From assembly GCA_002269645.1 (NCBI GenBank), contig NIVC01003342.1, positions 39,262 to 103,261 on the forward strand: a DNA stretch of 64,000 bases, written 5' to 3'. Under the pieces are notes generated by a model that made no database searches, was not told the origin of the DNA, and worked only from the letters and a program-made list of their open reading frames with translations. Positions 2,839 through 8,802 of the stretch are shown here, one piece after another. Within the stretch, counting starts at the first letter, position 1, and each line of letters opens with the position of its first letter. The DNA comes from Macrostomum lignano (taxonomy: Eukaryota). The position numbers were made by a program, and so were the translations under genes.

Positions 2839-5025
2839 TCATCCATCAATCCTTGATGTTAGGATTGGATGAATGGCGTTGACTTCGTAGGCTCTTGACA
2901 GGGCGTCCGCGGCCTTGTTAGTAATTCCTGGTTTGTAGACGAGCTTGTAGTTGTAGTCCTGGATCTTGAGTGTCATCCTGATGAGTCGGTTGTTTGTTTG
3001 TCCTTTTGTAGTTACGACGTAGGTCAGCGGTGCATGATCTGTGCGTACTATCGTCTGTAATGGAGATCCATAGATGTAGTAGTGAAACTGTCGTAGGGCG
3101 AACAGAACTCCTAGTAGTTCTCGTTCCGTAGCTGACCATTTTGTCTCATTCGGTTTAAGTGCTCGACTGACGTAGGCTATAGGTCGTTCCTTTTTGTCTT
3201 CAGTTTCCTGTAGTAGGACTGCTCCGAGTCCCGTTCCTGAGGCGTCTGTCTCGATGATGAAGGGTTTGTCGAAGTCCGGATGCTGTAGCAGTGCGTCTGA
3301 TGTCAGCTGTCGTTTGATTTCGTCAAAACTTTCTTGTTGCTTTTGTGTCCAATTCTCCTGCTTCCATTTGTCGAACTTGAGCAGGTCGTACAGCGGCTTT
3401 GCTGTCTTCGCGAAGTTGGGTAAGAACTTTCGGAAGTATTGCGCAAGTCCAAGAAATGATTGGACCTTCGTTATGCTAGTTGGCGTAGGAAACTTTTTCA
3501 CTTTATCCACGTTGTCTGGGTCCGGTGAAATTCCTTTGGCTGTCACCTGATGTCCCAGGTAACGCACGTTGTCTCGGAAGAATTTGCATTTAGTTGGTTG
3601 TAGCTTCAGACCTTGACGTTGTATAAGCGCGAGGGCCTTCTCCGTCGCTTCATAGAGTCGTTCGAAGTCTTCTCCGTAGGCCAAGATGTCGTCAACATAG
3701 TGCAACAGGTTCGTGCATCCTGCAAGCATGTATGCTGTTAGTCGGCTCATCGTTGCTGGGCTGTTGCTGAGTCCCATCGGCGATCGATTGTACTCGTATA
3801 CTTGTCCATTGTAGGTTTTGAAAGCCGTGTACTGTCGTGACTCTTTCTCGATTTCAATTTGCCAAAATCCATGACGTAGGTCGAACACTGTGAACAATTT
3901 TGCCGTGTTGAGCTTTGCTAGTAGTTCGGAGATCTTCGGTAGGCTTTGCTGATCCGTCGGTATGTACTTGTTCAGCAGTCTGAAGTCACATACGAGTCGT
4001 CTTTCGTTAGTCTCCTTCTTTTGCACCAAGAGACATGGTGATGAGTATGCTGAAATGGCTTTGCTGATGATGCCGTGTTTCAGCATTTTGTCGATAATCT
4101 CATCGAAGTGCTGTTGCAGATGCTTGGCGATCGGGTACGGTTTGCACTGAATTGGTTCCGTGTGCGGCAGAAGTTTGATTTCCTGTTTGATGTCCTTGGC
4201 TCGTCCGATGTCGTAGTCATGGTGGCAGAAAGCGTCGTTGTACTTCCACAACAGCTGTCGAACTTTCCTCTTTTGCTGTTCCGTAATCGGGCTGTCATCC
4301 AAATTGATCTTCTTTTGAAATTCTTCCTCTGTTAGTCGTGGAGTCGCTTGCTCAATCAGCATAACCGATGCTTGGGTGTTGAGATGACCGATGCACATTC
4401 CTTGTCGTAGATGAACCGTTTCTGTGTTCGGGTTGAATATTTGTACTGGCAGCTGTTTATCTTTTGCAACCAGTACTAGTGCCGTAGGCATCATAATTTG
4501 GTGTTTAGCCGTGACTCTTCTGTTTGGGTCGAATATCATTGCTTCCTCCGTTGCGTTAGTTGCCTTTGCCTTTATCCAGCAGGCGCTCTCCGGTTGGATG
4601 ATGACATCTTGTTGCAATGTTACTTTTGGTAGTACTCGGATCTGGTTGATCAATGGTTGTTCTACCGAGTCGATCTTAAACGTTTGCTTATTGAAGTCGA
4701 AGGTCAATGGTAGTCTAAGCTGCTTGAACGTGTCGATGCCAACAATAACGTCCTGGTTTGGGAGTCTGTCGATGACGTACGATGGAACTGTCAAATGTTT
4801 ATTAGCGATTCTTAAATCAATGTCGGCTTTTCCCAGAATGTTTAGCGAATGTCCTCCTGCTCCTGCAACTGCGATTGTTGCTGGCCGTAGAGCAAGTCGT
4901 AGCTTGTTGCACAGTTGTTTTGATATAACTGTGATGGAGCTGCCGGAATCGAGTAGCGCTCGACATGGTAGATTGTTGATTACCACTTGAGCCATGCTTT
5001 GCCAATTTCGGCGTGTAGAGTACAT
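2839..5025 (-). CDS. pol: Pol: aspartic protease, dUTPase-like spacer, reverse transcriptase, RNase H
   Basis: ALLDSGS, LVCDFRLLNK, FDLRHGFWQI, YVDDIL, ETDASGTGLGAVL, TDHAPL, ADALSR. The frame is open from 5130. Confidence 0.97.
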   Translation of the reverse strand: MYSTRRNWQSMAQVVINNLPCRALLDSGSSITVISKQLCNKLRLALRPATIAVAGAGGHSLNILGKADIDLRIANKHLTVPSYVIDRLPNQDVIVGIDTFKQLRLPLTFDFNKQTFKIDSVEQPLINQIRVLPKVTLQQDVIIQPESACWIKAKATNATEEAMIFDPNRRVTAKHQIMMPTALVLVAKDKQLPVQIFNPNTETVHLRQGMCIGHLNTQASVMLIEQATPRLTEEEFQKKINLDDSPITEQQKRKVRQLLWKYNDAFCHHDYDIGRAKDIKQEIKLLPHTEPIQCKPYPIAKHLQQHFDEIIDKMLKHGIISKAISAYSSPCLLVQKKETNERRLVCDFRLLNKYIPTDQQSLPKISELLAKLNTAKLFTVFDLRHGFWQIEIEKESRQYTAFKTYNGQVYEYNRSPMGLSNSPATMSRLTAYMLAGCTNLLHYVDDILAYGEDFERLYEATEKALALIQRQGLKLQPTKCKFFRDNVRYLGHQVTAKGISPDPDNVDKVKKFPTPTSITKVQSFLGLAQYFRKFLPNFAKTAKPLYDLLKFDKWKQENWTQKQQESFDEIKRQLTSDALLQHPDFDKPFIIETDASGTGLGAVLLQETEDKKERPIAYVSRALKPNETKWSATERELLGVLFALRQFHYYIYGSPLQTIVRTDHAPLTYVVTTKGQTNNRLIRMTLKIQDYNYKLVYKPGITNKAADALSRAYEVNAIHPILTSRIDG

Positions 5026-7246: not shown

Positions 7247-8802
7247 GGCATCCGATTCGTTCCGCTGCTTGTCGTCTTCATCATTTTCTCCTTGCTTTCT
7301 TCCGATGTTGTAGTTGTGTCACTCCATTGTCTGCGGTACCCTACTTCGGCCTTGTAGTCGACTGTTTGAATGTAGGCTTCACCATTTCGTTTATATCGGA
7401 TCTCGTAGCATTGATCGCTGTCGGAGCTTAGATTTCTTTCTTCCATTCCTTTGTGCCTTCCGTCTTCATGTTCTTTGTCGGCGGCTTGGTTGTCATCAGC
7501 GTCATTCTGCATCTCATAATCGTGATCGCTGCTTTCTTCTTGCTGTTCTTCTTCCATTTCTGCATTTCCGTCGTTGCTTCTTTCGTTGTCATCCTTCGTT
7601 GCCAGTTCTTTGTCGTTGCCTTTGTTTGTTTCTTCTTTTCTTTCATTGATGTCGCTTGGCAATGTTTTTTCTGTGCTCACTTCTGCCTTTTCTTCTTCGC
7701 TGTCAATGTTAGTTTCTTTCATTTCGACCATGCTGATGTTTTTTGTCTTTTCGCTGCTCTCCGCATCGAGCCAGTCGATTTCATTGATAGTGAAGTCCAT
7801 TTCCAAGTCGTCTATCGTGAAGACTTGCTGCTCTTGCTGTTCGCTTTCCGGTGTGTACGTGATGGCGTTTGCATATCGTTGCATCGCTTGCGTTGGTTGC
7901 TTGGGCATGTATCTGGCGTTTCGCGGTCTGTAGCCAATGTTTCCTAAGCGTTTCGTGTTTTGCTGCTGCCAATTTTGATGCTGTTGCCATGGTTTTTGCG
8001 GCTTCCTTCTGTTGAATGGCTGTCGCTGCATGTCATTTCTTGTTGACCGATGAGGACAATGTATTTGGTAGTGTCCTTCTCGTCCACAGTAATAGCATCT
8101 GGCTTGGGCTCGTTCATTTCGTCTTTTTTGTTCGGCGATAACGGCTGTTTGATGTTGCATCAGTTTGTTTAGTTGCTGTGTCAGTTTCTGCACTTCTGTG
8201 TTGCCGGTTGTCATTAGTGGAGCGCTTGCTTCCCACTGCATTCCGCACCGTAAAAGGTCTTCCTCGGTTTCAATGTTTTCGCGTAGAAGTCTATCTCGGA
8301 GTGACGGCTGTGCATTGTTTATTACGTGCAGAATCAGATTTTGTTCGCGATCCATCAATCGCTGTCGCTCTCTAGCGGCTAATTCTGCCGCACCCAGAGG
8401 TGGTTGGTCTGCAGCTGGCAGTGTTGGCTGATGCAGTGCCTTAATTATCTGACGGATGTCGTCCACAAAGGTCAGGAAGGATTCGGTTGGCTGCATCCTT
8501 CTGTTATGCAACTTGTGCAGTAGCACTGATCTGTTTGTGCCACAGCGGTTGAAATGCGCGCGCAGTTGAATGATTAATGCTGGGTAGTTTTGCTGTGTTG
8601 CCGCATCTAGTTTACCATAAATCTCTCGTGCAGTGCCTTGGAGGAGTGCTGGCAACAGTTGCGCTTTTTCTGGATTTTGTAGGTTGTATTCCCTACATAC
8701 CAGGTCAAAATGATCAACAAAGGTGTTAAAGTCTTTTTCCATAGAAAAGGTGCCAACTGTCTCTTTGATATCTCTGTGCACCGTTGGATTGCGCCGCGCC
8801 AT
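7105..8802 (-). CDS. gag: Gag (capsid, one CCHC knuckle, long acidic linker)
   Basis: Retrotransposon-gag N-terminus (FNTFVDHFDLVC..., MQPTESFLTFVDDI), knuckle CYYCGREGHYQIHC, then ~200 aa rich in E/D/K/N. Confidence 0.92.
   Translation of the reverse strand: MARRNPTVHRDIKETVGTFSMEKDFNTFVDHFDLVCREYNLQNPEKAQLLPALLQGTAREIYGKLDAATQQNYPALIIQLRAHFNRCGTNRSVLLHKLHNRRMQPTESFLTFVDDIRQIIKALHQPTLPAADQPPLGAAELAARERQRLMDREQNLILHVINNAQPSLRDRLLRENIETEEDLLRCGMQWEASAPLMTTGNTEVQKLTQQLNKLMQHQTAVIAEQKRRNERAQARCYYCGREGHYQIHCPHRSTRNDMQRQPFNRRKPQKPWQQHQNWQQQNTKRLGNIGYRPRNARYMPKQPTQAMQRYANAITYTPESEQQEQQVFTIDDLEMDFTINEIDWLDAESSEKTKNISMVEMKETNIDSEEEKAEVSTEKTLPSDINERKEETNKGNDKELATKDDNERSNDGNAEMEEEQQEESSDHDYEMQNDADDNQAADKEHEDGRHKGMEERNLSSDSDQCYEIRYKRNGEAYIQTVDYKAEVGYRRQWSDTTTTSEESKEKMMKTTSSGTNRMPCARKRQWNKRKNTMRTQKITNGSRSQCQQRQRQRSGNGDSGYSGSS

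Follow-up and report, generated by a model that had tools for sequence, protein, structure and literature searches.

The nematode NERV elements reportedly carry one continuous gag-env-pro-pol open reading frame (ORF) together with small extra ORFs, as Sacco et al. are said to have found in 2022. In the consulted parts of the survey by Chary and Hayashi (PMC13524379), Env lies between gag and pol in the NERV clade, and GAG-ENV-POL elements with an envelope protein (Env) of the glycoprotein B (gB) type are described from Nematoda, Bryozoa and Platyhelminthes, one of them being Platyhelminthes_Rhabditophora_Mlig_errantivirus_2 (Mlig_errantivirus_2 below) with 16 copies; the layout is thus already published for flatworms. 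Here we analyse a 64,000-nucleotide (nt) stretch of Macrostomum lignano DNA (GenBank assembly GCA_002269645.1, contig NIVC01003342.1, positions 39,262 to 103,261), hereafter the window, whose positions 1-10564 hold, on the minus strand, what its sequence marks as a Ty3/gypsy (Metaviridae) long terminal repeat (LTR) retrotransposon with env between gag and pol. Unlike this flatworm element, NERV has nematode hosts, and the GAG-ENV-POL elements are not monophyletic (PMC13524379, same parts). Akin to our element, Cer1 of C. elegans, which that survey sets beside a flatworm gB-type errantivirus, belongs to Ty3/gypsy and has one long ORF whose product is cleaved post-translationally (PMC3315495), and Atlas virus (Belpaoviridae) encodes a single polyprotein of 2,828 residues, envelope included, free of stops and introns; Atlas virus differs, however, in its Gag-Pol-Env order, its class II phlebovirus-like fusogen, its family and a Pol that does not follow a transmembrane helix (PMC9094657), as far as the consulted parts of these two papers go. 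The main text of PMC13524379 contains none of the terms 'polyprotein', 'fused', 'frameshift', 'splic' or 'readthrough' and is silent on a single ORF, which its figures or deposits may show. A literature search for a single-ORF gag-env-pol element, with subscription papers mostly outside its reach, gave nothing beyond that survey, and PMC4604429 mentions neither polyprotein nor retrovirus nor LTR.

An earlier account of this DNA, made from its letters alone (the sequence-only reading), had described three interruptions of the coding sequence and weighed two models: a polyprotein damaged by small insertions and deletions plus a nonsense change, or programmed recoding or splicing that sets the ratios of the products. 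The minus-strand ORFs, namely gag 8925-7105 (ATG at 8802), env 7318-4817, protease-reverse transcriptase-RNase H (PR-RT-RH) 5130-2839 and integrase (IN) 2838-1468, bear out all three breaks, including the TGA at 2841-2839. The three were not the only ones, however, as a fourth lies in the integrase tail (~1575-1620) when the window is set against P0056, the closest named protein, a Macrostomum lignano retrovirus-related polyprotein. We conclude, with a probability of roughly 0.93, that the family encodes one continuous Gag-Env-PR-RT-RH-IN polyprotein and that four clusters of lost bases make all the breaks, because sister sequences read through every junction; the intact polyprotein would be ~2,440 residues long.

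7250..7318, minus strand: Break 1 (gag/env); the window is 1 nt shorter than sister copies
4980..5060, minus strand: Break 2 (env/PR); two separate one-base losses
2810..2870, minus strand: Break 3 (RH/IN linker); the window is 3 nt shorter, with TGA 2841-2839 inside the slipped stretch
1575..1620, minus strand: Break 4 (integrase C-terminal tail); the window is 1 nt shorter than P0056; seen clearly against one protein

A search with env at longer lengths returned two proteins, P0055 and P0056, and no full-length family protein. P0056 (1,488 residues, of which 1,428 match the window and 60 do not; 96.0%) runs from the middle of env through PR, RT, RH and IN in one chain without a stop. Laid onto the frames of the window, it steps by +1 and again by +1 at env/PR, by +3 at RH/IN and by +1 in the integrase tail, where Break 4 produces no stop and is visible only by this comparison. 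P0055, identical to the window at 1,408 of 1,418 compared residues (99%), crosses the gag/env junction by a +1 step without losing a residue and takes the same two env/PR steps as P0056. Its gag-env join is not an intron artefact, since a predicted intron cannot give a +1 step without loss of a residue. The acidic composition of the window likewise switches at Break 1, out of the frame of gag and into that of env. Altogether the window lacks 7 nt relative to its sister sequences, in four clusters, with no extra base. These losses account for the frame relations that the sequence-only reading had correctly pointed out, with codon starts 8802, 5025 and 2835 all 0 modulo 3 and env 1 modulo 3: gag, pol and IN come to lie in one frame as the deficits of 1+2 and of 3 nt are multiples of three, and the TGA at 2841-2839 stems from a local frame slip in the RH/IN stretch, not from a lone nonsense change. 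The damaged-polyprotein model therefore held in its core, as sister copies read through all three junctions it dealt with, but not in its details: bases are lost at every lesion, at two separate points in the case of env/PR, the slip produces the stop, and the fourth lesion had been missed.

Contigs from sequencing runs gave additional support. The stretch is present in 20 of 24 listed runs (7 studies), none of those with the stretch being recorded as RNA, and contigs of four runs from four studies were compared with the window at 88% likeness, using the best 12 of 59 indels, 15 of 26 joints, 32 of 2,623 pieces and 40 of 706 substitutions. An indel just upstream of the TGA accounts for 95.6/107.1, 47/51.8, 2214.8/2337.1 and 730.4/763.6 of the summed depth (89-96%, in four of four runs). 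At the RH/IN linker, contig record 17 places 250 letters over 247 nt (+3); at the gag/env overlap, records 13, 20 and 27, from three runs, are each one letter longer than the window; and at env/PR, record 10 is net two letters longer, with 44 other letters differing (~89% alike, depth 9.7). The spanning contigs, being net +1, +2 and +3 letters, thus match the protein comparison. Among the listed pol/IN substitutions between copies, 29 of 30 fall at third codon positions, after 10 of the 40 rows had been set aside (1 non-coding, 5 in the RH/IN slip, 4 in gag) and with 23 of the 30 deriving from one diverged contig stretch; on this ground the family is under purifying selection.

Distant relatives show the same order. 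A full HMMER search with env found 51 proteins, 50 of them besides P0055, of which 12 continue past env into PR or pol on one chain (6 of these reaching IN) and 4 carry gag before env. In P0058 (2,852 residues) the parts follow one another as gag, env, pol and IN. In P0057, which is 46% and 53% identical and derives from a contig of 2,932 nt, gag is joined to env. Pfam matches on 21 of the 50, picked for length, agree with the single-chain order, as in P0092 (gag, zinc knuckle, fusion protein, PR, RT, RH, IN); the exceptions are P0100, of BEL/Pao type with env last, and P0080, with protease matches on both sides of env. At near lengths, the gag search returned P0057 alone, and the pol search gave 54 matches, none above 41% identity.

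Several observations weigh against a single continuous ORF damaged only in this copy or its assembly. P0055 is a chimeric, spliced gene model, whose first 1,545 residues have no tblastn match in the window and which is not tied to this locus, and P0056 begins in mid-env; no single high-identity sister sequence covering gag to IN was found, the evidence coming from two overlapping proteins and contigs. The contig results rest on the best-ranked records given above, among which record 10 alone spans the env/PR junction and no near-identical piece covers 4877-5051. Near the TGA, 4-11% of the depth is not listed with the indel, and the window's version may therefore exist in a real copy. The distant proteins come without their genomic surroundings, and spliced models may be among them. 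The linkers where the breaks lie are not richer in same-letter runs (195 vs 183 per kb), which leaves the linker bias only partly explained, and the topology and cleavage steps given below for the polyprotein are proposals.

If the family has a single ORF, the losses could have arisen in the record or in the DNA. We think that they are probably consensus errors of the assembly, since all seven differences are losses and the two LTRs (10564-9619 against 944-1, blastn) differ by gaps but by no substitution (99.8%, 0 mismatches, 2 gaps, 946 columns). True decay of this insertion, by deletions during reverse transcription or after insertion, appears rather unlikely by comparison. It would agree with the minority depth near the TGA, with the 10 of 1,418 residues at which the window differs from the closest protein, which make it a distinct copy, and with the long contig pieces without gaps elsewhere (for instance 7397-8575, 5085-6135, 3977-4876 and 1627-2035), which show that the error rate is not uniformly high. 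Seven losses with no gains, next to LTRs free of substitutions, would however be an unusual natural spectrum, and the depth sums suggest that the minority in run X2 also differs nearby and so is not the exact version of the window.

Programmed recoding, by contrast, would make the breaks functional: ribosomes would slip by -1 at gag/env and by +1 at env/pol and would read through the TGA, and these events would set the Gag:Env:Pol:IN ratios. Recoding is common in LTR elements, and the placement of the breaks could be taken to favour it: non-domain stretches account for 21.6% of a coding span of 7,310 nt, and all three original breaks fall there (P=0.01), as do all four (P=0.002), in a test whose domain borders are partly approximate and were drawn after the fact. 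The statement that the breaks sit at domain junctions thus stands as to non-domain placement, but the sequence around the RH/IN stop is 3 nt short and the env/PR break is double. This linker bias exceeds chance and yet implies no recoding. Copies differ more in linkers (11/139 vs 43/1,343 residues, P=0.014), although alignment noise may have added to this contrast, and the bias may reflect a consensus that fails where copies disagree. As for signals, neither a Ty1 or Ty3 +1 heptamer nor a read-through context was found at the junctions, in a search for sequence motifs without folding of RNA structures, in agreement with the sequence-only reading; contrary to it, one heptamer of the X-XXY-YYZ form (C-CCA-AAA) does exist, at 5048 in the env frame near the env/PR junction. 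This heptamer belongs to the -1 type and would shift ribosomes opposite to the way that passage from env to pol requires in the window; P0056 does not retain it, no codon for the residue at its place being able to supply its first base. Moreover, the sister residues between env and PR lie in the third frame of the window, so no single ribosomal shift could yield them, and the integrase tail, in which recoding would serve nothing, has a break of the same kind. The sequence-only reading had named uninterrupted sister copies as the outcome that would speak against recoding, and P0055, P0056 and the spanning contigs are indeed uninterrupted across the junctions: none of the breaks is present in them, no frame offset or stop is conserved among the copies, and no recoding signal in the right direction was found at a junction. 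We therefore regard programmed recoding as highly improbable; the recoding pattern is not a real feature, and the element is of a known kind, here in a damaged or wrongly assembled copy.

A further possibility is that the genomic ORF is single and that spliced RNA skips env, giving Gag-Pol, or skips gag, giving an Env message. The env RNAs of insect errantiviruses are as a rule spliced, and splicing would relieve the problem of a 1:1:1 ratio of products. Yet the shared frame that had suggested in-frame skipping of env is a by-product of the losses, and no gag-to-pol joint occurs among the best 15 of 26 joints, although contigs cannot prove absence. The long skips that do occur (6275-9369 and 6307-9490) appear only in runs X4 and X2, not in two runs guessed to be RNA, and are without splice-type ends. 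Splicing of this kind is thus improbable, if less so than recoding, and the second model of the sequence-only reading is supported on neither count. The two skips, of ~3.1-3.2 kb, suggest internally deleted copies that lack gag and the first half of env. Other joints in the contigs include a 102-nt leader skip (8898-9001) in runs X1, X8 and X2. In X4 and X2 the LTR (9296-10560) has a depth ~4-10 times as high as the internal region and abounds in joints and loose ends. This suggests numerous solo LTRs or else related subfamilies of LTRs, summed depth not being a copy number.

The single-polyprotein element has the following layout outside env.

9488..10564, minus strand: 5' LTR, ~1,077 nt if the LTR extends to the primer-binding site (blastn)
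9476..9487, minus strand: primer-binding site (PBS), the same 12-mer as the PBS given for Mlig_errantivirus_2 in supplementary file 1 of PMC13524379
7139..8802, minus strand: Gag part, with capsid-like region, CCHC zinc knuckle (Pfam zf-CCHC, E 0.055, weak) and long acidic spacer
2871..4995, minus strand: protease, reverse transcriptase and RNase H (Pfam Asp_protease_2, RVT_1, RT_RNaseH(_2), above cut-off)
1621..2809, minus strand: integrase, with zinc-binding and core domains (Pfam Integrase_H2C2, rve) and C-terminal part
1..944, minus strand: 3' LTR, clipped by the window edge, with a purine-rich tract immediately upstream

Two direct LTRs (the 3' one incomplete in the window), a PBS and a polypurine tract are present, and the order PR-RT-RH-IN, with strong Pfam matches for protease, RT, RNase H and integrase, is that of Ty3/gypsy; the best pol matches are 30-38% identical and have Ty3/gypsy-type domain sets. 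The Gag part shares 46% identity with the Gag of P0057 and 28% with that of P0058. Its acidic spacer of ~300 residues (8040-7139, minus strand) separates the zinc knuckle from the env signal segment and has 31% Asp+Glu over 7800-7330. Another stretch of ~150 residues, between protease and RT (4704-4250, minus strand), has no Pfam match yet is kept in P0056 and is possibly an extra domain. No tRNA gene was found within the 64-kb window.

Env lies between gag and pol and, as in gB-type errantiviruses, has an HSV/gB class III ectodomain flanked by two hydrophobic segments.

7064..7138, minus strand: internal hydrophobic segment (Kyte-Doolittle peak 2.19), a probable signal or signal-anchor
5345..7063, minus strand: envelope ectodomain with the herpes-gB / class III fusogen fold (Pfam PF24664, E 2e-5, weak; profile; predicted model)
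5246..5344, minus strand: envelope transmembrane helix, probable stop-transfer (Kyte-Doolittle peak 2.43)
5061..5245, minus strand: cytosolic tail joining Env to the protease, with VNAI at 5227 as a putative protease site

A profile of the ectodomain and 29 relatives matches herpesvirus glycoprotein B (E 2e-14), and a model predicted from aligned input has a mean confidence (pLDDT) of 76.6 and a Foldseek match to gB of E 1e-21, whereas the fold from the single sequence alone reaches a pLDDT of 30.8. The ectodomain carries a furin-like RRRR at 6139 and seven N-glycan sequons. The motif VNAI, which occurs at 2883 as well as in the env tail at 5227, is kept at both places in P0056 (the 5227 copy at residue 242).

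The gag-env-pol order, HSV/gB-type Env, hydrophobic-flanked ectodomain and 12-nt PBS are those of Mlig_errantivirus_2 as given in the consulted parts of PMC13524379, and its host species is the one named on P0056. The spacing from LTR to LTR is 9,620 nt here against ~9,727 in the table of that survey (~107 nt apart), a comparison of length, not of sequence, and the sequence of Mlig_errantivirus_2 was not among the supplement rows examined. On these features our element is likely to be Mlig_errantivirus_2.

These features suggest how one polyprotein could serve an enveloped element. Gag would be synthesised in the cytosol, and the internal hydrophobic segment would direct Env into the endoplasmic reticulum, where signal peptidase would cut the segment. 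The transmembrane helix of Env would halt transfer, so that PR-RT-RH-IN would emerge into the cytosol while still joined to the tail of Env; the protease of the element would release the parts at VNAI-like sites (5227 and 2883), and a furin-like enzyme would cleave Env. Product ratios would then be governed by processing and turnover rather than by recoding.

Between the integrase and the 3' LTR lies a small ORF that may belong to this scheme.

1166..1378, minus strand: 70-residue ORF, candidate accessory gene, apparently degenerate here, with an M-G-x-x-x-S start and a RING-like pattern

Two cysteines expected for the RING-like Cys/His pattern are missing in this copy, and contigs over 950-1316 differ from the window by 5-6 letters and 3-4 gaps. 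Profile matches lie below the cut-off (Sina_RING, E 0.94; Baculo_IE-1, E 0.035), and the atlas look-alikes are RING protein clusters (0.90-0.91). A literature search for a myristoylated RING accessory ORF, again with subscription papers mostly outside its reach, gave nothing beyond PMC13524379, and PMC5408684 contains neither RING as a whole word nor myristoyl. Tentatively, and with more doubt than for the single ORF itself, enveloped particles might form from one polyprotein threaded twice through the membrane of the endoplasmic reticulum, with Gag tethered by the signal segment and Pol carried on the tail of the gB-type Env, in equal amounts and without recoding, while the small RING protein with its myristoylation motif would act as a matrix or budding factor, much as the arenavirus Z protein does.

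Elsewhere in the window, 32146-34250 (plus strand) holds a decayed piece of a second LTR element, with a gag-like region, a weak aspartyl protease match (E 0.004) and an integrase-like tail recognised by eye. A 605-residue ORF at 36478-38295 (plus strand), with a Spin-doc zinc finger and DUF4371, is probably a hAT-type transposase, and an ORF at 60009-60518 (minus strand) has a fibrinogen C-terminal domain (E 2e-9). Long tandem arrays occupy 49717-56000, 20324-21700, 24264-24800 and 45537-46300 and include a 24-nt unit in at least ~180 copies.

Taken together, our results indicate that frame breaks in the linkers of multi-copy elements can come from the sequence record, and that claims of recoding need sister copies first. 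They also indicate that a flatworm gag-env-pol errantivirus is one ORF, a point unstated in the main text of PMC13524379. This raises the question of how Gag and Pol remain in the cytosol when the Env between them is lumenal, and how they are packaged at equal ratios. If the proposed route of particle formation is true, assembly in this family would be unlike that of retroviruses or insect errantiviruses, and since M. lignano is a laboratory model, the native products should be directly observable.

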